From the NCBI GenBank assembly GCA_937934305.1, contig CALHAG010000001.1:88659-112658 (forward strand): 24,000 nt of DNA, in the 5' to 3' direction. Each line of letters opens with the position of its first letter. The stretch's first letter is position 1. Of the stretch, positions 3,088-16,315 are shown one piece after another. A program made the position numbers and the translations under genes. The notes beneath the pieces are model-generated. The model did not search any database, was not told where the DNA came from, and saw only the letters and a list, made by a program, of their open reading frames with translations. This DNA comes from Candidatus Caldarchaeum subterraneum (GTDB taxonomy: Archaea > Thermoproteota > Nitrososphaeria_A > Caldarchaeales > Caldarchaeaceae).

Positions 3088-6000
3088 TTGAAGTCGATAT
3101 ATGTATCGCTCTGCCCAAACTGTGGCGGAGAAATAACCGATGAGGAGCTTGTTGGGCGAGGGGTTTGTAGCAGATGTGTTTTGCAGGATGGTCGGCTTAA
3201 GCCGGGAAAATACACTAAGGCTTTGGAGCTTGAGGAGGAATATAGAGCGTTCGCGGATTTTTTCAGCAGGGTCGTGGGCTCTCCTCCATGGTCTCTGCAG
3301 CGGACATGGGCTAAAAGAGCTCTCCTCGGAAGAAGCTTCTCAATAGTTTCTCCCACGGGAACGGGGAAGACAACCTTCTTCATAGCGATGGCCATTTACC
3401 AAGCATCTAAGGGGAAAAAATCCTACATAATCGTCCCCACAAGCCTCCTCGCACAACACATCCACGAAAGAACCTTATCGATGGCGGCCAAACATGGAGA
3501 AAAAGCAGCAAAAATCGCTGCATACTACTCTGGCATGAAGAAGAGCGAGGCTGAAGAGATGCTGCAGAAGATAAGGGATGGGGAGTTTGGCATCCTAGTC
3601 ACCACAGACCGTTTCCTCAACACACGTTTCGAGCTTCTGAGAGGAAAAAAGTTCTTCTACATTTTTGTTGATGATGTAGACTCTTTCCTCAAGTCACCGA
3701 GAAACATCGACAAAGTTCTTCTCTTAATGGGGTTTGAGGAAAAGGAGATCGAGAGACATCTAAAACTAGTCTCGGCTAGGTCTGGAGAAAGTGAGGCGGA
3801 GGAGTATGCTTCTAAAGAGATTGCGAGGCCTGACTCTGTGTTGCTTGTAGCCGGAGCCACTATGAAGGGCCGGAGAACCAAGAGAATTCGATTGTTCAGA
3901 CGTCTTCTAAACTTTGAGCCCGGAGGCTCAATAGAGTTTGTCAGAAACATCTCCAACATGTACCTGCACCAAAGCAAGAAGATGTGGGAACAGGTCGCGG
4001 AGCTGGTGAAGACACATGGAGGCGGATGTCTGATTTTTGTTCCGCAGACAGCGGGTGTCGAATCTGCTAAAGAGTTGGCAAAATTTCTGAACAGCCAGCG
4101 GATTAGTGCATATGCTTACGAGAAGATGGATACGAAGATGCTTAAGCGGTTTGAGTTGGGCGAGTATGATGTCTTGGTTGGTATCGCGAGTACGAGAAGC
4201 CCTCTAGCCAGAGGCATCGACTTGCCGGAGCGGATAAGATACGTGATTTTCGCGGGTGTTCCGAGGCGTGAGCTGAACGTGTCTTGGCGAGAGCACAGGC
4301 CCTCCATGTTGCTCAGCCTCATCCAAAATCTGTACTCGATACTTAGAGAGAAGAACGAGTCCGAACTGGTCCAGGTAATGGGTATGTTGAAGAAATGTGT
4401 CCCCACCGATAGGGAGGTGTTGGAGAGTGTTAGAGAGGGGCTTGAATCCTCGAAACAGCCCGAAGGATTCGCAGGATATGTTTACTCAGCTGTTACGAGA
4501 GCTCATCAACTCCTCAAAACATGCATCGGTGAGGAGGAGCTAAGACGTGTAGCGGAGAACCTCGACATGAAGATACGTGTGGACGAGAACGGTGTCTCCA
4601 TAATTCTCCCCGACATCGATGGATATGTGCAGGCGTCGGGCCGCTCCTCGAGGATGTTCGCGGGAGGCATAACCCGTGGAATATCCATCCTCATAGTCGA
4701 TGACGAGAAAGCTTTTAGAGGCATCATGAGGGCCCTCGAAACCATTTACGAAGAAACCTTCCAAGAATATAGTTTGGAGCATGCTAGAGAGGAGTTTAAG
4801 CAATGCGATAGGGATAGACAGTTCCTGCGTGAGATCAGAACAGGGTCGGCGAGCGTAGAGTCCCTAGATATTTTGAGGTCGTCGCTGATTATAGTTGAGT
4901 CGCCGACGAAGGCCCGCACGTTGGCCTATTTTTTCGGAAAGCCTGCTAGACGAGTTGTCGATGGACTGACTGTTTACGAGTCGGTTGGAGAAGGCTATGT
5001 CGCATGTCTCACCGCTTGTCAGGGACATTTGGTGGACATTACGACGAGCCACGGTTTCCATGGTGTCTGGATTCACGATGGAGAGTTTGTGCCGATGTAT
5101 GTGGATATTAGGAGATGTTCGAAGTGTGGGGAGCAGTTCACGGATAGCGAAGTGTGTCCCAACTGCGGCTCCGACAAATACTTCAGCAAGCTATCCATAG
5201 TTGATTCTCTGCGTAAACTTGCGCTCGAGTTTGACCATGTCTTCATCGCAACTGACCCTGATACGGAGGGTGAGAAGATTGGCTATGACCTCTATGTGAG
5301 TATTTGGCCGTTTAACAAGCGGATTGAGAGGCTTGAGCTTCATGAGATTACGAGGAAGGCTTTACGGGATGCGTTTAAGTCTCCGCGTAGTGTTTCGCTG
5401 CCGCTTGTCGAGGCACAGGTTGTGAGAAGAATCGAGGACAGATGGGTTGGCTTTGAGCTGAGCAGACGCCTCTGGGAGTTTTTCGGGGAAAAACATCTCT
5501 CGGCAGGCCGTGTCCAAACCCCTGTCCTCGGCTGGATAATCCAAAGGATGGAAGAGGCTAGGAAGAAGAAACTAGTCGCAAACATGACGTTTGAAGACGG
5601 CTCCGAACTCATGCTAGAAAATATCGAGGATGTTGACATGGTCAAGAAACTCTATGCCGAAGGCGCGTTGAACGTGGAGGTGGCTGATGTGAAGTATGTT
5701 GAGACGGTTGCCACAGCTGTCAAGCCCTATACAACCGATTCTCTTCTAAGAGATGCATCGATTTTTCTCAGGATGAGTGCTGCGGATGCGATGGATGCTG
5801 CCCAAACCCTTTTCGAGTCGGGTCTTATAACTTATCATAGAACGGGGGCGACATATGTCTCGTCGACGGGGTTATCGGTGGCTAGGAGTTATCTTGAGGA
5901 GAACTTTCCAGGGCTTTTTGTGGCGAGGCATCATGGCGAACCCGGTGCACATGAATGCATCAGGCCGACGAAACCGCTCTCGAGGAAGCAGCTCGAGCTT

Positions 6001-6615
6001 TATCTTCAGTCGGGTTTGATTAGAGTGCCGATGCGAATAGGTGATAGGGAGCTTATGCTCTACGACCTTGTGTTTAGACGTTTTATGGCTAGTCAGATGA
6101 AGGATGCGCTTGTGCGGAGACAGATGTGTAATTTGATGGTTCTAGGGAAAACCTATCGTGTAGAGAGGGTTGTTGAGGTTCTTGAGCCAGGGTTCCTCAA
6201 CCTCTACCAAACCATCAAGACTGTGAAGGCGCTTGAACCAGGTGTCCACAAGGTGCTGAACCTCCAGATCAAGAGTGTGCAGGCGGCGCCGTTTTTCCGC
6301 GAAGGCGACATCATCGCCTTGATGAGGGAGAGAGGCATAGGTAGGCCTAGCACATATGCACAGGTCCTCAACCTCCTCTACAAGAGGAGATACATTTTCA
6401 ACGACGGTGGAAGAGTGTTGGCGACGAAGCTGGGGAAGACAGTCTATAACTATCTCGTGTCGAATTTTGGCTCTTTTGTCTCCGAGACGTTGACGAAAAG
6501 GTTGGAGGAGCTGATGGAGAGCATAGAGTCTGGCAAAGTCAGTTATCAAGAAGTCCTAAAAGAACTCTACGGAGAAACTTCACAAATCTCGAAAACATCT
6601 GCAAAAGCTGCATAA
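3088..6615 (+). CDS. rgy: Reverse gyrase (helicase-like domain fused to a type IA topoisomerase), 1175 aa
   Basis: Contains an N-terminal Zn ribbon (CPNCGG...CSRC), helicase motif I (SPTGTGKTT) and motif II (VDDVDS). The topoisomerase part has a TOPRIM domain (IIVESPTKARTL, ATDPDTEGEKI), an internal Zn finger (CSKCGEQFTDSEVCPNCGS) and a catalytic-Tyr motif (ITYHRTGATYVS). Single uninterrupted ORF. Confidence 0.97.
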   Translation: MKSIYVSLCPNCGGEITDEELVGRGVCSRCVLQDGRLKPGKYTKALELEEEYRAFADFFSRVVGSPPWSLQRTWAKRALLGRSFSIVSPTGTGKTTFFIAMAIYQASKGKKSYIIVPTSLLAQHIHERTLSMAAKHGEKAAKIAAYYSGMKKSEAEEMLQKIRDGEFGILVTTDRFLNTRFELLRGKKFFYIFVDDVDSFLKSPRNIDKVLLLMGFEEKEIERHLKLVSARSGESEAEEYASKEIARPDSVLLVAGATMKGRRTKRIRLFRRLLNFEPGGSIEFVRNISNMYLHQSKKMWEQVAELVKTHGGGCLIFVPQTAGVESAKELAKFLNSQRISAYAYEKMDTKMLKRFELGEYDVLVGIASTRSPLARGIDLPERIRYVIFAGVPRRELNVSWREHRPSMLLSLIQNLYSILREKNESELVQVMGMLKKCVPTDREVLESVREGLESSKQPEGFAGYVYSAVTRAHQLLKTCIGEEELRRVAENLDMKIRVDENGVSIILPDIDGYVQASGRSSRMFAGGITRGISILIVDDEKAFRGIMRALETIYEETFQEYSLEHAREEFKQCDRDRQFLREIRTGSASVESLDILRSSLIIVESPTKARTLAYFFGKPARRVVDGLTVYESVGEGYVACLTACQGHLVDITTSHGFHGVWIHDGEFVPMYVDIRRCSKCGEQFTDSEVCPNCGSDKYFSKLSIVDSLRKLALEFDHVFIATDPDTEGEKIGYDLYVSIWPFNKRIERLELHEITRKALRDAFKSPRSVSLPLVEAQVVRRIEDRWVGFELSRRLWEFFGEKHLSAGRVQTPVLGWIIQRMEEARKKKLVANMTFEDGSELMLENIEDVDMVKKLYAEGALNVEVADVKYVETVATAVKPYTTDSLLRDASIFLRMSAADAMDAAQTLFESGLITYHRTGATYVSSTGLSVARSYLEENFPGLFVARHHGEPGAHECIRPTKPLSRKQLELYLQSGLIRVPMRIGDRELMLYDLVFRRFMASQMKDALVRRQMCNLMVLGKTYRVERVVEVLEPGFLNLYQTIKTVKALEPGVHKVLNLQIKSVQAAPFFREGDIIALMRERGIGRPSTYAQVLNLLYKRRYIFNDGGRVLATKLGKTVYNYLVSNFGSFVSETLTKRLEELMESIESGKVSYQEVLKELYGETSQISKTSAKAA

Positions 6616-6633
6616 ACTTGTTTGAAACAAACA

Positions 6634-6740
6634 AGGCGCCGGGTAGAAAGATATCTCGCAACCCCCTAATCGCAGTGGCCACAGCTTTGACGGGAAAAAT
6701 CACAGACCCACGGCAACACACTCTACAAGAACTCTTCTAA
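6634..6740 (+). pseudogene. Orphan duplicate of the leuC 3' end (last ~35 codons, no gene body)
   Basis: In-frame translation PGRKISRNPLIAVATALTGKITDPRQHTLQELF* aligns with the LeuC C-terminus GGRTHLASPLVAAATALTGKITDPRQFPLQDLE*. There is no upstream ORF or start; it begins 19 nt after the rgy stop. Confidence 0.75.
6681..6710 (+). repeat. Right copy of the perfect 30-bp direct repeat
   Basis: Identical to 2947-2976. The flanking bases differ on both sides (t/c on the left, a/c on the right). Confidence 0.95.
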
Positions 6741-6972
6741 CCCAATCTTTTTTCACCACATGGTTGTCTTCGGAGCAAAGCCACCGGACTCGAACCATTC
6801 TCCTCCACAGAGCGGACACTTCTTTGACCCGTGAGAGGTCTTGATGGGCTGAACCCTGTTACCTCAGAAAGGACATGGCTCAGAAGTTCTCCAGCTCACG
6901 AAAACAAGAGAAAAATCCACCAATAAGCTTTATCCATGCCCGGTCTGGATGTTTTCGATGGATGGTCCATGG

Positions 6973-6981
6973 TTAAATAAA
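6973..6981 (+). promoter_or_regulatory. TATA-like box upstream of the cation exchanger gene
   Basis: ttaaataaa lies 19-27 nt upstream of GTG 7000. Called by position only. Confidence 0.3.
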
Positions 6982-6999
6982 TGGTGAGGTGCAGGACCC

Positions 7000-7929
7000 G
7001 TGGCCGTGTTCCTTGATGTTGTTGCAGTTTTTGTGCTCTCCTGTCTAGGGTTGGCTGTGACGGGTTATCTTCTCGTGAGAGGCGCTGAGCTTCTCTCGGA
7101 GAAACGTGGAATCAGCCGGTTTCTCGTAGGCTTCATATTGCTCTCCGTCATCACCTCGTTGCCAGAGCTTTCCGTGGCTACTTTTTCGTCGCTGGCAGGA
7201 GTTGTCTACCTCTCGGTCGGAGATATTCTAGGCTCCAACGTGGTGAATGTAGCATTGGTCGCTGCTCTCTCCACCTTCTTTGTAACGGGCGTTGTATATG
7301 TGGGTCTGGATGTGCTCCGGGACTTGGCGGGCATTCTCTATTTTTCCTCCATCATACCTATTTTGATGATTTTTATTCCTGAGGTGGCTGTGGAGCTTGG
7401 AGTATTGTTGCTGGCTTTTTTCATGGTGTATATTTATCTCTCGTTTCGGTCGGCGCCTGCTAACGCTCGGGTTGCTGAGAAGGTTGGCGTCGGATATAAT
7501 GTGATTGTTTCAATGGTTGTTGTCGGAGGGGTGGGTGTGGTGGTCTCTGCCTATTTCTTGGTGGAGAGTGTGGAGGGCCTTGTGTTGTTGACGGGGTTGT
7601 CTGAGCTGGAGGTGGGTGCGAAGATTGTCTCTATATCGACGTCGGCGCCGGAGATTGCGACGACTCTTCTTCTCTCAAAGCGAGGTGTTTATGACATGGC
7701 TCTCGGAAACGCTGTCGGCTCCAACCTCACAAACGTAACTTTGATACTTGGAGCTCTTCTCATAATCTCGGGGCAGTCGCTTGTTTTCAGCCAGCATGTT
7801 TCCGTTGTTCTTTTCGTTCTGCTGGCGAGCTCGACTTTCTGGTTCTTTATCAGCAGAGGTGCTTTGAATAGGATGAGCGGTGTGCTTCTTTTACTGATTT
7901 ACCTGTTTTTCCTGACGGTGGCCAAGTAG
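7000..7929 (+). CDS. Ca2+/cation antiporter (CaCA, YrbG/NCX-like) membrane protein
   Basis: About 10 predicted TM helices and two alpha-repeat signatures: ITSLPELSV...GDILGSNVVNVAL, and STSAPEIATTL...GNAVGSNLTNVTLILG. Confidence 0.85.
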   Translation: MAVFLDVVAVFVLSCLGLAVTGYLLVRGAELLSEKRGISRFLVGFILLSVITSLPELSVATFSSLAGVVYLSVGDILGSNVVNVALVAALSTFFVTGVVYVGLDVLRDLAGILYFSSIIPILMIFIPEVAVELGVLLLAFFMVYIYLSFRSAPANARVAEKVGVGYNVIVSMVVVGGVGVVVSAYFLVESVEGLVLLTGLSELEVGAKIVSISTSAPEIATTLLLSKRGVYDMALGNAVGSNLTNVTLILGALLIISGQSLVFSQHVSVVLFVLLASSTFWFFISRGALNRMSGVLLLLIYLFFLTVAK

Positions 7930-8226
7930 CTCAGCATCGAGGATTTTGTTGTCTGATGTGACGACTTGCTCGAGTTTCTCCAGCAGGGTTTCCATGTATA
8001 TGAGGTATGCAAAGACTGTGGTGAACATCAACATTCAACTCAGCATCACACCCATCGCGTTCAATTTTCATTTGGGGCATCAGTGTGTGGTTTTCCCGTG
8101 CTTTTTGTGTTTTTATGTTGTTTTGTCGCCGAGTGTGTAATCGTCGCCATCTCTTCTTAATAGGCGTGTCCAAGTTCCATAACACTTTTTATGATGAGAT
8201 AAATGTTGGTGTTTGGCTGTTGGTTT

Positions 8227-8781
8227 ATGCTGCAGATTGGTGTGGGTTGTTCGAGTGACCGTGAGCCGTTGCCGGGTGCTGTTGAGAAGGCGCGGAGGTT
8301 TGCCGCGAGGTTGGGTGTTTACAGGGATGAGGTTGTTTTGCTGACGGGTGGCGACGGCGGCTTGATGCGTGTGGTGTGTGAAGAGTTTGTGCGGAGAGGT
8401 GGGATAACGGTGGGCGTCATCCCATACGAGGACGAGTTCATCGACAAAACTCATCCACGATACAATCCCTACAACACAATCGTCTTCCGCAGCGGACAAA
8501 CCTACCAAGCAAGAAGCATAGGCCTCGTCAGAAGCAGCGACAGCTTCGTCATCCTCGGCGGCGGCTCGGGAACAATCATCGAAGCACATCTCGCATACAT
8601 CTACCGCATCCCACTCATCATCCTCACCGAAACAGGCTATCCATCAGACATCCTCGCACAAATGCATCCCGACGGACACCTCGACCACCGAAAAATCAAC
8701 GCAGCCCACTACATCAACGACCCCGAAGAAGCAGCGGACAAAGCAGTCGCACTAGCACGACAAAAAACACAAAAGCTTTAA
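8227..8781 (+). CDS. TIGR00725 / LOG (lysine-decarboxylase-like) family protein
   Basis: Rossmann-like signatures: IGVGCSS...A..LG.......LLTGGDGGLMRVVCEEFVRRGGITVGVIP, and VILGGGSGTIIEAHLAY. The start is set at ATG 8227 (MLQIGVG), inside track ORF 8203..8781. Confidence 0.8.
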   Translation: MLQIGVGCSSDREPLPGAVEKARRFAARLGVYRDEVVLLTGGDGGLMRVVCEEFVRRGGITVGVIPYEDEFIDKTHPRYNPYNTIVFRSGQTYQARSIGLVRSSDSFVILGGGSGTIIEAHLAYIYRIPLIILTETGYPSDILAQMHPDGHLDHRKINAAHYINDPEEAADKAVALARQKTQKL

Positions 8782-8803
8782 CAAACCAAATAACAAAACA
8801 AAC

Positions 8804-9841
8804 ATGCAACATGAAACACAGATAGAGCAGCTGCTACACACTCCGCTCCAAGCAATCGAGGTCGGCGAAAAAACCATCGCCCAGCTCCTCGACCAAATGA
8901 AGCTAACAGGATTCCAGGGAAGAAACCTTGCACTCGCAGCCGAAACATGGGCGAAAGCCGCTCAAGCAAAAGACACAGTCATCATGCTCGGATACGCAGG
9001 CTCACTCAGCACAACTGGCCAGTGGAAAATCGTCAAATGGCTCGTCGAGAAAAGGTTTGTGGACGTTGTTGTGTCAACAGGGGCCAACATCTCAGAGGAC
9101 CTCATAGCCGCCATGGGCTACAACTACTACATAGGCACATCATACATCGACGACGACCTTCTCCGCCGCCTCCGCATCTACAGGTTCCACGACGTCTTCG
9201 TCAAGGAAGAAGACTACATCAAGATGGAGGAAATGATAGCCGACTTCATGCTGACACTCGACAACATGGAACCCATGTCCTCAGCCGAGTTCCTCCACCT
9301 CTTCGGCAAATGGCTAGACCAACGCAACATCCATGGAATAGTCCAAGCCGCATACAGAGCAGGAGTGCCCGTCTTCAGCCCAGCCATCGAAGACAGCGGA
9401 TACGGCGTCGCCTACATCATCAACAGACACCGCAAACCCGGCTACAAACTAATCCTCGACCACTTCAGAGACTATGAACAGCTCATCCGCATACGAGGCA
9501 GACATCGAGACAGCGCAGCAGTCTTCATCGGCGGAGGAGTTCCCAAAGACTTTATCCAATTATCAGCCGTCGCTGTCGACATTCTCGAGAAAGGAGACCC
9601 GCTCACCACTAGGCCCCATCGCTACGCCGTCCAGATAACCACCGACAACCCACACTGGGGAGGCTTATCTGGCGCAACACTCGAGGAGGGCAAGAGCTGG
9701 GGAAAGGAGACATCCGAGGGAGTAGGTGTCCAGTGCTTCTGCGACGCAACAATCGCACTACCGCTCATAGCCCACTACCTGCGCGAAAAAGTCGGCGAAA
9801 GAAAAAACAAGCCAGACCTCTCATGGGTCTTCTCTACCTGA
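8804..9841 (+). CDS. dys: Deoxyhypusine synthase
   Basis: Matching segments include MLGYAGSLSTTG, VVSTGANISEDL, FSPAIEDSGYG, GGGVPKDF and ITTDNPHWGGLSGATLEEGKSWGK. The length (345 aa) is typical. Confidence 0.93.
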   Translation: MQHETQIEQLLHTPLQAIEVGEKTIAQLLDQMKLTGFQGRNLALAAETWAKAAQAKDTVIMLGYAGSLSTTGQWKIVKWLVEKRFVDVVVSTGANISEDLIAAMGYNYYIGTSYIDDDLLRRLRIYRFHDVFVKEEDYIKMEEMIADFMLTLDNMEPMSSAEFLHLFGKWLDQRNIHGIVQAAYRAGVPVFSPAIEDSGYGVAYIINRHRKPGYKLILDHFRDYEQLIRIRGRHRDSAAVFIGGGVPKDFIQLSAVAVDILEKGDPLTTRPHRYAVQITTDNPHWGGLSGATLEEGKSWGKETSEGVGVQCFCDATIALPLIAHYLREKVGERKNKPDLSWVFST

Positions 9842-11186
9842 TGGCGAGAATCATCAAATCACCCACGTTCGTACCAGTTGGCCCCGTCAAAACCAGTCCA
9901 CCAACCCTGCTGAAAAACGTGTAGGAGTCATTGTCCTCGAGAAACTGCAGAGGGTCAATCCCCTCCCTTGCCGCGTTTCTGAGAGTCTGAGGAGCCGCGA
10001 CCGCCCCCGCCGCATCGGTTACACCGTCAACCCCATCCGTGCCAATCGATGCGAAAACAAACCTCGGAACATCACGTAAAAGATGCAGAGTGGCCAGCAC
10101 CAGCTCTTGGTTGCGGCCTCCTCTACCACGGCCTCGCACCGTCACGGTTGTCTCGCCCCCAGCCACCAGAGCGAAAGGCGGAGCATGTGGAACACCATGT
10201 TTCACCACATCACGGGCCACTGCGGCGAAAAGGCTCGCCACATTCCTCGCCTCCCCCACAACACCGCTCGTCAACGCAACAACACTGTAACCCCTTCGCC
10301 GCATCTCCACAGCGGCGGCCTTCACCGCATCAACACAGCCGCCGACAACCACGTTCACAACACGTCTAAAACACGGGTCCCCATGCTTAGGCGTCTCAGG
10401 ATACACCCCCTCAGCACCCCGACGCAGCCTTCTCCAAACATTCTCCGACACATCCACACCCCGTCTCCTCAAAACATCAAGAGCATCTCGAAAGGTTGTG
10501 GGATCCGGCGCAGTTGGCCCCGAGCCAATCACGTCGACACGGTCGCCGACAACGTCGGAGAGTATGAGGGAGAAGGCCCTGCAGCGGAGGTTTTTCGCAA
10601 GCCATCCACCCTTTAAAGCTGAGAGATGCTTCCGCACAGTGTTCAACTCATCTATAGAGGCACCGGCCTTCAGCAATGCAGAGGTTGTCTCAACTTTGTC
10701 CTGCAGCGAAACACCTTCCGCGGGCACAGCGGCCAATGCTGAAAAACCACCCGAGACAAGAACAAAGGCAAGCGAGTCTCCGCTGCATGATGAAGCCGTC
10801 TCGAGTATCCGCCGCCCCGCCTCCTCGCTCGAACTGTCTGGCAGCGGATGGCCTCCTTGTAGAACCTCGAGAGGTTTGAGACGCCGCTTCAGCCTGTATC
10901 CACGTGGAACAACAACCACACCCCTCACATCAAAGCCGTCGAGAAACCGCAGCATCTCAGCAGCCATCCCCTCCGCAGCCTTTCCGCCGCCAACTATGAC
11001 GAGGTCGCTGAACCGTCTCAGCTCAACCATCTTCCCACCTATTTGCAGACAATCACCACGACGCTTTATCACGCGACGAATCAAAGCACCCGGCTCAACA
11101 GCGGCCAACCCGCTCCTCAGCCCTGCCGCAACATCCTCTACACCACGCAGCCCCACTACACGCAACAACAAACATCCACCAAACAT
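9834..11186 (-). CDS. Glycerate 2-kinase / hydroxypyruvate reductase-like protein (DUF4147 + MOFRL domains)
   Basis: VIVGGGKAAEGMA in the N-terminal domain. The C-terminal MOFRL signature is LVAGGETTVTVRGRGRGGRNQELVLA ... ASIGTDGVDGVTDAAGA ... GPTGTNVGDL. Its end overlaps the dys end by 8 nt (convergent). Confidence 0.85.
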   Translation of the reverse strand: MFGGCLLLRVVGLRGVEDVAAGLRSGLAAVEPGALIRRVIKRRGDCLQIGGKMVELRRFSDLVIVGGGKAAEGMAAEMLRFLDGFDVRGVVVVPRGYRLKRRLKPLEVLQGGHPLPDSSSEEAGRRILETASSCSGDSLAFVLVSGGFSALAAVPAEGVSLQDKVETTSALLKAGASIDELNTVRKHLSALKGGWLAKNLRCRAFSLILSDVVGDRVDVIGSGPTAPDPTTFRDALDVLRRRGVDVSENVWRRLRRGAEGVYPETPKHGDPCFRRVVNVVVGGCVDAVKAAAVEMRRRGYSVVALTSGVVGEARNVASLFAAVARDVVKHGVPHAPPFALVAGGETTVTVRGRGRGGRNQELVLATLHLLRDVPRFVFASIGTDGVDGVTDAAGAVAAPQTLRNAAREGIDPLQFLEDNDSYTFFSRVGGLVLTGPTGTNVGDLMILAIR

Positions 11187-11244
11187 CCCTACAAGCTTAA
11201 CGGCGGGAAAAAGGGTTAAAGCAAACCCAAAAAAGAAAACGGTG

Positions 11245-11874
11245 ATGGATATTTTCTCGCAGGCTTTCTGGGAGGGGTTAACGGCGTATGGCTATTTCGG
11301 TGTCTTAGCGGCCAGTTTCCTCGGAAGCCTCCTCCCATTTGTCTCAGGCCCCTACATCCCTCCCATCATCATCGCCGTGATGGCTGGAAGGCTTGACCCT
11401 CTTCCAACGGCGTTGGCAAGCGCTACGGGAGCGGCGTCGGCGAAGCTTATTCTCTTCAGGTTCTTCAAAGGCGGCCGAGTACTGATAAGCGACGAGACAA
11501 GGAGAAGAATCGAGCCTCTCGAACGGCTTGTGGCACGGCATGGCTGGTTCGCCGTCCTCGCCGCAGCCGCCACACCCCTCCCCGACGACATCATCTACAT
11601 CCTCCTCGCCGTAGCCAACTACAGCAGCAAACTCTTCCTCCCCACAGTCTTCGCAGGCAAACTCCTCATCACAACCATCGCAGCCTACACAGCCCTCTAC
11701 TGGAGCACACTCGCATGCACAATAATCGAATGCACAGCAGGCCAGCTCAACCCTCTCCAAACAATCCTCCTCGCAGCAGCATCAGCCGCAGCAGCCATGA
11801 CACTCATCTACATAATAACAAGACTCGACTGGCAAAAAATCCTCACAAAACTAGGAGAACATACGCAACGCTAA
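11245..11874 (+). CDS. DedA/VTT-domain-like polytopic membrane protein
   Basis: Four to five hydrophobic helices. A re-entrant-loop-like motif (LLPFVSGPYIPPIIIAVMAG) and ATPLPDDIIYILLAV resemble the VTT/SNARE-associated family. The start is set at ATG 11245; the upstream part of track ORF 10498..11874 is antisense to the kinase gene. Confidence 0.55.
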   Translation: MDIFSQAFWEGLTAYGYFGVLAASFLGSLLPFVSGPYIPPIIIAVMAGRLDPLPTALASATGAASAKLILFRFFKGGRVLISDETRRRIEPLERLVARHGWFAVLAAAATPLPDDIIYILLAVANYSSKLFLPTVFAGKLLITTIAAYTALYWSTLACTIIECTAGQLNPLQTILLAAASAAAAMTLIYIITRLDWQKILTKLGEHTQR

Positions 11875-11898
11875 AATCTCGCAACAAATACTTCCTCC

Positions 11899-12180
11899 GT
11901 GCCTCACAGGCTTGAGCTTTTCATCTCAGACTGTCCTCTCTGCCGAAAGACACGCGCCATGATTGAGCTGGGAAAATGCGCCGGCTGCAGCTTCACCGTT
12001 CACGACCTCTCCAAAAACTTCAACGCCGTTGAAGAGCTTGTGAAAAAGTATCAAATACGCTCCGTTCCCACGCTCATCATAGACGGGAAAATAAAAATCG
12101 AGGGCGTTCCAACATTCACCTTCATATGCGACGAAAACCTCTATCGCATCCTTGAGGAGAAATATGCCTCCAAACCATAA
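11899..12180 (+). CDS. Thioredoxin-fold (glutaredoxin-like) small protein with a CPLC active site
   Basis: LELFISDCPLCRK ... IRSVPTLIIDGK fits the thioredoxin-fold pattern of CxxC followed by a cis-Pro (VP) loop. GTG start. Confidence 0.7.
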   Translation: MPHRLELFISDCPLCRKTRAMIELGKCAGCSFTVHDLSKNFNAVEELVKKYQIRSVPTLIIDGKIKIEGVPTFTFICDENLYRILEEKYASKP

Positions 12181-12242
12181 GCCGCATGTTCAAAACATCT
12201 TACGAGGTTAGCCATTTTTCGGTAAAGGCTTAAGAGGTTGAT

Positions 12243-13220
12243 GTGAGCAGGGTGTTTGGGACGCTGTTGGACACGGGTTCTTCACAGTTTGTGCTGAGTA
12301 GCATGAGGCCGGTCACTTGGGAGGATTATCGCCGCTATGTGGCTGAGAAAGGCTATGTCGAGGTGGAGGATGTCAGGATAGAGATAGGTAAACCACATAA
12401 AATCACTTCCTACAGCCCACCCGCATCATACAGTCTCGAGACCACAACGGTGTGGAGTTTTCCAGACCGCGGCGACTGGGCCACACACTCCGGCGACTAC
12501 AGGGGAAACTGGAGCCCCTATGTCCCAAGAAACCTCATTCTAAAATACACTAAGCCCGGGGAGCTTGTGCTTGACCAGATGTGCGGCTCGGGAACCACGC
12601 TGGTTGAGGCAAAACTATTGGGAAGAAACGCGATAGGCGTCGACATCAACTATGAAGCATGCATACTCACGCTGGACAGGCTCAATTTCGAATTCCATCC
12701 ACTGGATGAACAGCGGGAACCGGTGATAAAGGTGTATCACGGCGATGCGGCAAAACTCAACGTCATAGAAGATGAGAGTGTAGACTTGATCGCCACACAT
12801 CCACCCTATTGGAACATCATCCCATATTCCCAGAAAAGACCCGAAGGCGACCTTTCAGCATACAGAAAACTCGAAGATTATCTGGGAAAAATGATGCAGA
12901 TAGCCCGTGAATCCTACCGTGTTCTGAAACCGGGGCGATACTGTGCAATACTCATCGGAGACACGCGAAAACACAAACACTACGTGCCTATCTCCACTTA
13001 CGTGATGCTGAAATTCTTGCAAACGGGATTTGTTCTGGCGGAGGATATAATCAAGCTGCAGCACAAAATGAAGACTACGCGTGAAAAATGGGGTGGAAAA
13101 AATTTTGAACAGTATGGTTTCCATAAAATAGCCCATGAACATCTTTACGTTTTCAGAAAGCCGGGAAACGAGGAAGAACGCGGCAGATTGTCGTTGAGCA
13201 GCTGGTTGACGAAGATTTGA
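12243..13220 (+). CDS. DNA (N6-adenine or N4-cytosine) methyltransferase with permuted motif order
   Basis: The AdoMet motif I (LDQMCGSGTTLVEAKLLGRNAIGVDIN, 12573-12599 core) precedes a motif IV variant (LIATHPPYW; HPPY at 12798-12809). It is followed by ...YRVLKPGRYCAILIGD, as in N6_N4 methylases. Confidence 0.8.
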   Translation: MSRVFGTLLDTGSSQFVLSSMRPVTWEDYRRYVAEKGYVEVEDVRIEIGKPHKITSYSPPASYSLETTTVWSFPDRGDWATHSGDYRGNWSPYVPRNLILKYTKPGELVLDQMCGSGTTLVEAKLLGRNAIGVDINYEACILTLDRLNFEFHPLDEQREPVIKVYHGDAAKLNVIEDESVDLIATHPPYWNIIPYSQKRPEGDLSAYRKLEDYLGKMMQIARESYRVLKPGRYCAILIGDTRKHKHYVPISTYVMLKFLQTGFVLAEDIIKLQHKMKTTREKWGGKNFEQYGFHKIAHEHLYVFRKPGNEEERGRLSLSSWLTKI

Positions 13221-13816
13221 CCGAGCTGTCGACCGGCGAATATTTTGGCAGAGGTAGGAATAGAAGGAGAATACTCGAGGTAATCAGGCTCAGCAACGGA
13301 TGGATACTGCTCAAAACCGAAAACAGCAAATCTAAACATGATTTCAAGGTGAGAACGGTTTACCAGCTCAGGCCTCGAATAAGGTCATATACACCTAAGC
13401 ATGCACACTTCGCCATAGATTTCTACGGCAAGTTATGCGCTGACAAGGCGAAAGCCATGCAGGTCCTAAAAGCTATTGTGGAGGTTTGGCAAGGGGCGGA
13501 CATCGCAACCGTTGTCGAAAGGTTTAGACATGCCGTTAAAGATCTTCCAGGATATGATTTGGAGTATATTCTCTATGCTTTGGCATGGATTTTCCGGCAA
13601 GAAGATGTCAATTTCGCTGGAAGGCCTGAGAGCAGGCAGCGTGAGCTAGATGAGACGCTAAACCGTCTAGGCTTCAAGGTGCCTAAAGACAGGTTGGGAA
13701 GCCAACTCGCCCTAGCGCTTCTCTGCAACATAGCAAATGGAATGCATCCCGTAGACGCGCTCCTAAGAGCCAACCTCGACGTTCTACCCATCAAAAGAGG
13801 AAAAGGGAAGGTGTGA
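13217..13816 (+). CDS. Hypothetical protein (199 aa); candidate restriction endonuclease or specificity partner of the methyltransferase
   Basis: The ORF starts at a TTG that overlaps the methyltransferase stop by 4 nt (TTGA). No catalytic motif was recognised, so the function is inferred only from coupling to the methyltransferase. The start codon is uncertain (alternative GTG at 13349). Confidence 0.5.
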   Translation: MTELSTGEYFGRGRNRRRILEVIRLSNGWILLKTENSKSKHDFKVRTVYQLRPRIRSYTPKHAHFAIDFYGKLCADKAKAMQVLKAIVEVWQGADIATVVERFRHAVKDLPGYDLEYILYALAWIFRQEDVNFAGRPESRQRELDETLNRLGFKVPKDRLGSQLALALLCNIANGMHPVDALLRANLDVLPIKRGKGKV

Positions 13817-13936
13817 AAATGCTTTGGAATTGAGAGTGTTGCTTCAGTTGCTGCACACGTGTCAGTGGAAAAGGTTTCGACATCATTCTACCCGAAACCG
13901 GCATCCTCTTCAAGCCTTTCAAAGCAGCATCAAACA

Positions 13937-15325: not shown

Positions 15326-16315
15326 TTACTTGTCTCCCGATGCTTTATTTCTAATGTCTAGAACATTATTTCGGAGGGCTTTGCGGGCTTTTGCTATGCA
15401 TCCTGCTTTGGGGCTGAATATGGATGTGAATATTATGTTTGCTATTGCGATGAGTAGGAGTATTTGGGCTGCGAGGCTGTTGGGGTTGCTGCTGAGCATT
15501 ATGATTGGGACTGTGAGGGGGAAGAGCATGGACGCGATGGGGCCTGCGGCATACATGGCTGCGTAGCCGCGTGGCGATGCTCGGGTGTTGGCGCGGTCTA
15601 TTTTGATGCCGAGGGCTACTGGAAGTGTTTTGAATGGTTTTGGCAGTATGTTGAGGCGGACGATGTTGCTGAGGCCGATGTAGTAGTTGCTGAACCTTAT
15701 GCCTGCGAGTTTTCCGACAACGTAGTGGGCTAGGTCGTGTGTGAAGAACCATAGGAGAAGAAATGAGATGAGGCCCGTGACGAGTCTGCCTCCCGGTATC
15801 TGGAGGGGCTGGAGCCATAGCAGTATGTAGGCGGCTGCTGTGCCGAGGACGGATATCAGGTTTCCTGCTGCGAGGCTGATTTTGAAGGGGTCTTTGTAAT
15901 CTGGTTTTTCACCTGCTCCGAGGCTGTGTTTGATAGCTTCATGTCGGTAGGTGAGTATTTTTTTGAAGAACCTTCCCGCGAAGGGATTGCTTGACTCGAG
16001 AACCATGTCCTCGACTATTTTTGTGCCGCCGTCGGCTGGTGTGGTGATGATGGTGTGGTAGAGTTTTCCGAATGGGAAGTCGAGTGTTTCGTGGTATTGC
16101 TCAGTGGTGGAGCGTTCGATGATGCGGAAACGTGTCTGATAGCGTTGGCCGAGGAGACGGAATGAGACCGTGTAAACATCCTTATCCCATGAGACAAGCT
16201 TCATCCCAAGCTCCATGGGCCAAACCTTTCCCATGTTCTCGACAGTGCGGAAAAAACCGTAAACCTCCTCAACCGGCCGAGGCACAACATACTCAAAACG
16301 AAAAACCCACTTCAC
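15326..16315 (-). CDS. Fusion protein: N-terminal SRPBCC/START-like ligand-binding domain plus a C-terminal polytopic membrane domain with an HDLAH (zincin-like HExxH variant) motif
   Basis: The N-terminal ~135 aa resemble the polyketide-cyclase/SRPBCC fold (F.F.YVVPRPVEEVYGFF...). The C-terminal half has about 4-5 TM helices. FFTHDLAHYVVGKLAGI (HDLAH at 15725-15739) and YAAGPIASMLF resemble the M50/M50B site-2-protease motifs HExxH and AGP. Confidence 0.75.
   Translation of the reverse strand: MKWVFRFEYVVPRPVEEVYGFFRTVENMGKVWPMELGMKLVSWDKDVYTVSFRLLGQRYQTRFRIIERSTTEQYHETLDFPFGKLYHTIITTPADGGTKIVEDMVLESSNPFAGRFFKKILTYRHEAIKHSLGAGEKPDYKDPFKISLAAGNLISVLGTAAAYILLWLQPLQIPGGRLVTGLISFLLLWFFTHDLAHYVVGKLAGIRFSNYYIGLSNIVRLNILPKPFKTLPVALGIKIDRANTRASPRGYAAMYAAGPIASMLFPLTVPIIMLSSNPNSLAAQILLLIAIANIIFTSIFSPKAGCIAKARKALRNNVLDIRNKASGDK

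Follow-up and report, generated by a model that had tools for sequence, protein, structure and literature searches.

Several processes are known to make the two strands of DNA unlike in base composition. The asymmetry between the heavy and light strands of vertebrate mitochondrial DNA (mtDNA) is a product of single-strand deamination during strand-displacement replication; it involves the whole genome and is graded by the time spent single-stranded. Kataegis-type clusters around resected double-strand breaks are single events that hit all sites. Replication makes leading strands G+T-rich, and transcription generates asymmetries that are anchored at transcription start sites (TSSs): GC and TA skews jump there in plants, fungi and mammals, the non-transcribed strand of bacteria has an excess of C>T change, and the points at which strand bias shifts have been used to locate eukaryotic TSSs (PMC3269016). 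The case described here comes from a 24,000-nucleotide stretch of a Candidatus Caldarchaeum subterraneum genome ("the window"), in which one intact gene, a LOG-like gene at 8227-8781 of the plus strand, abruptly switches its synonymous codons from G/T-ending to A/C-ending. At this switch two patches of opposite strand skew abut: left of 8413 it is the plus strand that is enriched in G+T, and right of 8413 it is the minus strand. Throughout the genomes of the Ca. Caldarchaeum subterraneum clade such patches form a mosaic, and this mosaic is inherited; a literature search, of incomplete coverage, found no earlier description of them in archaea.

The extent of the switch is seen directly in the codon counts. 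(K3 designates the share of codons that end in G or T; G and T are the keto bases, A and C the amino bases.) The gene consists of 184 codons and a stop. In codons 1-62 (8227-8412), 52 of 62 end in G or T (K3=0.84); in codons 63-184 (8413-8781, with the stop), 13 of 122 do (K3=0.11; Fisher p=2.5e-23). The original prediction, made by reading this DNA alone, had reported precisely these numbers (as 52/62 G/T-ending and 109/122 A/C-ending codons) and a flip in bulk composition from 74% to 37.5% G+T; the recount is exact for both (89/120 in 8221-8340 and 45/120 in 8461-8580). Maximum-likelihood change-point detection on the third-position track also puts the optimum at the boundary that had been claimed, after codon 62 (8412|8413), with neighbouring splits scoring 1.7-4 log-likelihood units lower. 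Codon positions 1 and 2 move likewise (keto 0.66 to 0.43 and 0.68 to 0.43), and the exchange of synonyms runs through the code: Arg codons go from CGT/CGG/AGG to CGA/CGC/AGA, Gly from GGT to GGC/GGA, Val from GTG/GTT to GTC and Leu from TTG/CTG to CTC. Genome-wide (the source genome, G000, is a 30-contig metagenome-assembled genome, or MAG, of 1.56 Mb), the LOG switch ranks second for contrast between adjacent 300-nt windows and third among within-gene change points in 1,437 open reading frames (ORFs), the gene calls being crude ORF models of our own. Assignment to the TIGR00725/LOG family also holds: the protein matches Pfam SLOG cluster4 (PF18306; E=3.4e-20, 72.6 bits against a cut-off of 26.3) and falls 0.2 bits short of the TIGR00725 cut-off (106.7 against 106.9). 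The gene is conserved in 30 of 41 relatives.

A three-state hidden Markov model (HMM) that calls patches as K (GT-rich on the plus strand) or M (AC-rich on the plus strand) places the edge within a few nucleotides of the codon-based boundary. The K patch, 8065-8417, takes in the spacer upstream of LOG, a promoter-like region and the LOG 5' part; the patch that follows, 8418-8977, GT-rich on the minus strand, covers the LOG 3' part, crosses a 22-nt spacer and extends ~58 codons into the next gene, which encodes deoxyhypusine synthase (DHS; 8804-9841, plus strand; PF01916, E=1.2e-89) and is A/C-ending throughout (K3=0.22). This second patch is nested in a wider A/C-rich domain that extends from 8413 to ~11240, covering the LOG 3' part, the spacer, the DHS gene and a convergent glycerate-kinase-like gene (9834-11186, minus strand; DUF4147 and MOFRL by Pfam match). 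Over this domain the keto content of the plus strand is 0.29-0.45; from ~6900 to 8412 it is 0.58-0.71. The skew peaks beside the 8413 junction and fades outward. At its far (5') end, on the start and promoter side of the glycerate-kinase-like gene, the minus-strand-oriented domain is bounded by an AC-to-GT junction (11187-11306), where the HMM has an M patch at 10908-11240 and then a K patch at 11241-11306. Because the LOG-DHS spacer (8782-8803) is 21/22 A/C, with no G and one T, and because codons of the minus-strand glycerate-kinase-like gene, read in its own direction, mostly end in G or T (K3=0.67), the bias follows the physical strand rather than codons; in proposing a strand-specific process the original prediction was right. 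The DHS and glycerate-kinase-like genes overlap convergently by 8 nt (9834-9841), so that each transcript must enter the other gene antisense.

Is the junction merely a place at which unlike pieces of DNA have been joined, by an assembler or by recombination? The LOG orthologues of the closed sister genome G010 (1.68 Mb, ~92% nucleotide identity) and of a second sister genome, G009, whose proteins are 99% and 95% identical to that of G000, switch at the identical codon, K3 dropping from 0.82 to 0.11 and from 0.79 to 0.11, respectively; their LOG-DHS spacers contain 0/22 and 1/22 keto bases. (Among LOG orthologues more widely, 17 of 20 have the more G/T-ending 5' part.) With the junction in three independent assemblies, one of them closed, chimeric assembly and gene fusion are rejected, as had been argued from the continuity of the gene. 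A replication terminus, at which leading strands converge, would have the GT>AC polarity of the LOG switch, and a 30-contig MAG is open to misassembly, but an explanation by terminus or by chimera is barely credible: direct junctions of both polarities (31 and 35) are strewn over the genome between patches with a median length of ~175 nt, and the cumulative keto skew of G010, which is weak (about 1%), peaks at 717 kb and shows no more than a local bump at LOG (574 kb). The terminus is also rejected.

The edge of a recombination or horizontal-transfer tract, with the halves of LOG derived from lineages of opposite strand bias, was among the explanations offered in the original prediction, and it must now be considered very improbable. 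There is indeed a synteny breakpoint at the LOG 5' end: a GT-rich segment, 6933-8206 of the plus strand, delimited by blastn against the syntenic DNA of G010 and G009 and carrying a Na/Ca-exchanger gene (7000-7929; K3 0.65; PF01699), is a 1.27-kb insertion in this genome and is not found at this place in either sister. In addition, the 3' part of the LOG orthologue in G011 is also very A/C-rich, with 73% third-position identity to the G000 gene. But the synteny break lies at 8207, not at 8413; both halves of LOG are similarly identical to their sister orthologues (nucleotide identity of the 5'/3' parts: G010, 0.97/0.96; G009, 0.88/0.93); no relative resembles one half only, and no sampled relative has a uniformly extreme allele; and patches are no more diverged than neutral DNA. 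The G011 likeness is read as compositional convergence, since the 3' part of that orthologue has the lowest protein identity in the genus (74%). As to rearrangement proper, the 5.6-kb block 8207-13832 has different neighbours, and the opposite orientation, in G009 relative to G010 and G000; given these differing contexts and the missing exchanger segment, the LOG 5' end and the tRNA side of the block (~13.9 kb) qualify as recurrent breakpoints.

The boundary within LOG, though real, is not unique to this gene: it is one of 31 GT>AC junctions. The HMM finds 268 K and 285 M patches, 553 in total, which occupy 8% of the genome; their median length is ~175 nt and 90% are shorter than 375 nt. Patches of opposite sign abut at gap 0 66 times (31 K>M, that is GT>AC, and 35 M>K, or AC>GT), and are separated by 1-100 nt in only 12 pairs. 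They cross gene borders, and the intergenic share is 18% of patch bases as against 11% of the genome. Patches that are GT-rich on the coding strand cluster at gene 5' ends and patches that are AC-rich on the coding strand at gene 3' ends, which is the reason that 37 of the 40 strongest within-gene switches go from G/T-ending to A/C-ending on either gene strand. Fifteen of the 31 GT>AC junctions, LOG included, fall 90-290 nt inside a gene from its start. (The window contains a second direct GT>AC junction, at 16173/16174 in the minus-strand gene 15326-16315, 142 nt from its start, arranged in the same way as the junction in LOG.) The mosaic is inherited: at 27% third-position divergence, the K3 of K patches is 0.81/0.80/0.76 and that of M patches 0.20/0.23/0.26 in G000/G010/G009. 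With replication skew these patches share the pairing of G>C with T>A skew and sign changes that are origin-like and terminus-like; they differ from it in the 66 direct sign changes in 1.56 Mb and in domains that measure hundreds of nucleotides, the chromosome skew of G010 amounting to about 1%.

What maintains the patches is an ongoing regional strand-asymmetric regime that favours C>T and A>G on one strand and disfavours the complementary changes on it. This emerges from 434 kb of G000 aligned with G010, with G009 as the outgroup and substitutions polarized by parsimony. (Smaller three-way alignments were discarded: 5.6 kb yielded too few substitutions and 31 kb only a weak signal.) At third positions of skewed windows, counted on the GT-rich strand, C>T proceeds at 0.0656 against 0.0262 for G>A (2.5x, about 10 standard errors from counts) and A>G at 0.0665 against 0.0349 for T>C (1.9x, about 5 standard errors from counts); in neutral windows all four transitions lie at 0.045-0.055. 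Changes from amino to keto are up 1.3-1.45x in patches, while G>A and T>C are down to 0.56-0.64x, with the consequence that the summed third-position transition rate comes to 0.193 in patches as against 0.199 in neutral windows; overall third-position substitutions per lineage are 0.070 and 0.078, respectively. This equality of sums, together with the suppression of G>A and T>C, identifies the asymmetry either as a redistribution between strands or as a bias of fixation. Deamination of both C and A on one strand had been suggested: the direction of change that it predicts is found on the GT-rich strand, and the higher total rate that simple added deamination would bring is not. Outside third positions (codon positions 1 and 2, and intergenic DNA), most of the asymmetry is due to an increase of C>T and A>G, and the reverse changes are little suppressed. 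The strength of the asymmetry does not depend on whether the GT-rich strand is the coding or the template one, nor on nearness to gene 5' ends, and the asymmetry reaches to about 100 nt either side. The implied equilibrium third-position keto content is 0.69, compared with 0.77 at present, an estimate that parallel change in the outgroup would bias downward. (The neutral windows of G000 have only a weak transcription-oriented asymmetry: third positions read on the coding strand give C>T 0.0495 against G>A 0.0422, and T>C, at 0.0591, above A>G, at 0.0485.) The resemblance to vertebrate mtDNA is in the combination of C>T with A>G on one strand, in the partition into G+T-rich and A+C-rich strands, and in the near-saturation of free sites; the differences are that in Caldarchaeum there are patches of both signs, ~175 nt long, in a cellular chromosome, and that the summed transition rate is not elevated.

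Where do patches begin? Upstream of gene starts keto content is 0.46-0.47; just past the start it steps up to 0.56-0.57, most steeply where the upstream neighbour is divergent. The 5' ends of patches peak at -50 to 0 of same-strand start codons and their 3' ends at +50 to +300. AT runs occur with a frequency of 0.32 at patch 5' ends that lie at annotated starts and 0.21 at those of orphan patches; for random sites the figure is 0.10 and for patch 3' ends 0.07. Start codons genome-wide have A/T enrichment at -35 to -25, a signal that suggests many leaderless transcripts. In co-directional gene pairs with an AT-run gap, K3 is 0.39-0.41 in the last 80 codons of the upstream gene and 0.53 in the first 80 codons of the downstream gene; in translationally coupled pairs this dipole is absent (0.47 and 0.47). 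GGCC does not serve as an AC-to-GT anchor (7,551 sites, mean right-minus-left keto difference -0.005); the positive AC-to-GT signal is carried by AT-rich palindromes (ATAT, AATT, TTTAAA). Statistically, and as far as sequence can tell, patches start at promoter-like, AT-rich sites and extend for 100-300 nt along what would be the non-template strand, the DNA that precedes them having the opposite sign. The archaeon P. furiosus is known to initiate in both directions from a single TATA box (PMC6640164), and the opposite sign upstream of promoters would follow from initiation of this kind. All of this resembles TSS-anchored transcription asymmetry: the G+T excess of the non-template strand from promoter-like sites, its decay over a few hundred nucleotides, the opposite sign upstream and the C>T excess on the GT-rich strand. 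Yet the Caldarchaeum asymmetry is far stronger (third positions 84-89% of one class) and is broken into patches that end sharply on either side; in nearly half of the DNA within patches the coding strand is the A/C-rich one, and the total rate is not raised.

LOG and its neighbourhood may present instances of this anchoring. An AT-rich promoter-like element that can be read in the sequence, TTTTTAT...GATAAAT (8186-8204, plus strand), centred ~27 nt upstream of the LOG ATG, is predicted to be the TATA/BRE of a leaderless LOG transcript. Relatives of the same genus outside the clade have a LOG-DHS spacer of 43-56 nt with a ATTATAAA-type box and, around it, the normal dipole, with an A/C-leaning LOG 3' part (0.25-0.41) and a G/T-ending DHS 5' end (0.58-0.75). 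In G000, G010 and G009 the box is replaced by the 22-nt, near-pure A/C spacer, and the A/C regime continues unbroken from the LOG 3' part into DHS.

The interpretation that we favour, tentatively and at somewhat under even confidence, is that the asymmetry behind the patches that meet at 8413 is linked to transcription initiation. One strand would be exposed, or left unrepaired, during initiation, sense and divergent or antisense, at ~70 C or more, and this would give rise to the asymmetry. The first 186 nt of LOG would then be the promoter-proximal patch of its own predicted leaderless promoter, while the A/C part would lie in a domain of minus-strand orientation; this domain would originate at the convergent gene's promoter (~11240) and may in this clade have overrun the former DHS promoter. 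The sharpness of the junction would come from the meeting of two saturated regimes of opposite sign. In the LOG 5' part the G+T-rich strand is the non-template strand. In 8413-9841 it is the coding strand that is A/C-rich, and a non-template rule would hold there only if antisense transcripts dominate.

Several points weigh against this linkage to initiation. Minus-strand transcription over 8418-8977 is assumed; no TATA-like element was seen on the minus strand in the sequence near 8977; and the nearest annotated minus-strand promoter is 2.3-2.8 kb away from where the A/C patch is most pronounced, unlike the situation in promoter-proximal patches of 100-300 nt. At least 13 GT>AC junctions lie 90-290 nt into long genes and have no promoter annotated immediately downstream, in 45% of genic patch bases it is the coding strand that is A/C-rich, and the mid-gene regions of transcribed genes show only weak transcription-oriented asymmetry. 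The average equilibrium keto content (0.69) is below the extremes that LOG has attained (0.84 and 0.89). Finally, an unraised total transition rate with suppressed reverse changes fits a bias of fixation at least as well as it fits added single-strand damage.

Strand-specific fixation bias, by which variants that make a tract more keto- or amino-homogeneous on a given strand are preferentially transmitted, is the first of the alternatives to be weighed, although it seems unlikely. A symmetric shift, with amino-to-keto changes raised 1.3-1.45x, the reverse lowered to 0.56-0.64x and the sum unchanged, is what would be expected at 4Nes ~0.8; the predominantly one-sided asymmetry of codon positions 1 and 2 and of intergenic DNA is not. 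Biased gene conversion is a possible route: heteroduplexes with G/T-type mismatches would be cut by NucS/EndoMS and A/C-type mismatches tolerated (a specificity known from the literature), and the invading strand would be set by where recombination starts. The genome has one NucS gene (G000 C8:91608-91943), but NucS is also present in G037, a genome of the same order that is free of patches. The fuller version of this idea is that patches are not mutational footprints at all, but the work of strand-specific biased gene conversion in archaea that rely on NucS/EndoMS and exchange DNA, recombination-initiation sites (promoters) driving the invading strand to A+C and its complement to G+T. It is doubtful; if true, conversion driven by keto mismatches would write a self-maintaining keto/amino mosaic, even into amino-acid composition.

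A third possibility places the cause at the junction itself: recurrent, convergent single-strand exposure, either at a break hotspot with two-sided 5'-3' resection or at a fork stalled head-on at a promoter-proximal R-loop, the plus strand being exposed to the left and the minus strand to the right. The GT>AC polarity matches two 3' tails, the skew is maximal at the junction and fades outward, 15 of 31 junctions lie at the same 90-290 nt inside genes, and 66 abutments at gap 0 greatly outnumber the 12 pairs at 1-100 nt. Kataegis-type clusters have just this arrangement, with C>T-type changes to the left and G>A-type changes to the right of a point, but the Caldarchaeum pattern has passed through selection, is shared between species and shows no excess of rate. 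No sequence motif shared by the GT>AC junctions was found; patches have neither excess divergence nor a raised total rate; the break or stall site would have to be fixed to the nucleotide across species at 27% third-position divergence; and the promoter dependence of AC>GT junctions would be left unexplained. Taken together, these considerations make exposure at the junction improbable.

One might also suppose that selection acts on RNA or single-strand structure, since pure G/U or A/C tracts are devoid of Watson-Crick pairs, and that free positions come to match constrained ones nearby. Within genes, K3 is correlated with the keto content of positions 1 and 2 (r=0.27 genome-wide, 0.36-0.38 in the clade, -0.11 in G037), the LOG protein imposes more keto bases in the 5' part in all orthologues, and the substitution signature resembles that of fixation bias. 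However, the bias of substitution is predicted by the third positions of neighbours (0.030 and -0.026 per base) and hardly by their positions 1 and 2 (0.003, not significant, and -0.013), so that location counts for more than composition feedback; the per-base effect of the protein-imposed positions on amino-to-keto change is thus 0.003, compared with 0.030 for third positions. (Pure composition feedback, in which protein-imposed keto bases seed a patch, was rejected on the same comparison.) Patches also cover spacers; adjoining G/U-rich and A/C-rich tracts maximize mutual pairing, and yet abutments are common; and folding across junctions is that of arm-shuffled controls, with no hairpin in minimum free energy at LOG (z=-0.14) or over 19 junctions (mean z=-0.75). 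Selection on structure is on these grounds quite improbable.

The mosaic is unevenly distributed in the order. The share of extreme windows (30 codons with K3 <=0.2 or >=0.8) is 15-19% in G000, G010 and G009, 7.5% in G007 (same genus), about 6% in G013 (another genus) and G018 (another family), and 0.5%, close to the binomial expectation, in G037 (another family of the order; control stretch C23:1-120000, loci L162-L167, GC 0.41). The mosaic, then, reaches its greatest strength in the Ca. Caldarchaeum clade and is fainter in sister genera, and one family of the order is free of it. Even at near-saturated third positions, K3 in orthologous windows is correlated with that of G000 in G013 (r=0.15, partial 0.19) and in G018 (0.18, partial 0.23); for G037 there is no such correlation. 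G037, in which patches are absent and NucS and reverse gyrase are both present, is a natural negative control. Missing deamination repair is rejected as the cause: EndoV, two UDGs and the one NucS gene are present in the G000 genome. NucS was likewise rejected as a correlate, being nearly universal in the order, patch-free G037 included. Full-length reverse gyrase is confined within the genus to G000, G009 and G010, which are the strongly patchy three (the matches in ten other genomes of the genus are at the topoisomerase-IA level only, without full-length reverse gyrase), but it cannot predict patchiness, since it is also present in G013, G018 and G037. In the window the reverse gyrase gene is at 3091-6585 (G000 C1:91749-95243); in G010 it lies directly upstream of LOG.

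Two further observations concern what else the skewed DNA might encode. Long, stop-free antisense ORFs are found at 8113-8589 (minus strand, 158 amino acids) and at 10498-11874 (plus strand, 458 amino acids); they look like by-products of skew and can mislead gene callers in this lineage. Left of 8207, the former runs through DNA that the sister genomes lack. A search of 6500-12500 for known RNA families returned nothing relevant.

The effect suffices to override codon choice almost wholly, shift amino-acid composition and erase a promoter-bearing spacer; it therefore matters for models of codon usage, for gene prediction (long spurious antisense ORFs), and for dN/dS and phylogenetic models in these lineages. 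That the total rate is equal while the changes are redirected bears on how strand asymmetries of thermophiles arise, whether by damage, strand-biased repair or biased transmission, and the Caldarchaeales provide a graded natural series, from none to extreme, in which the origin of the asymmetry can be tested. If patches record the start and strand of transcription (or of recombination), then sequence alone would map sense and antisense starts in uncultured archaea.

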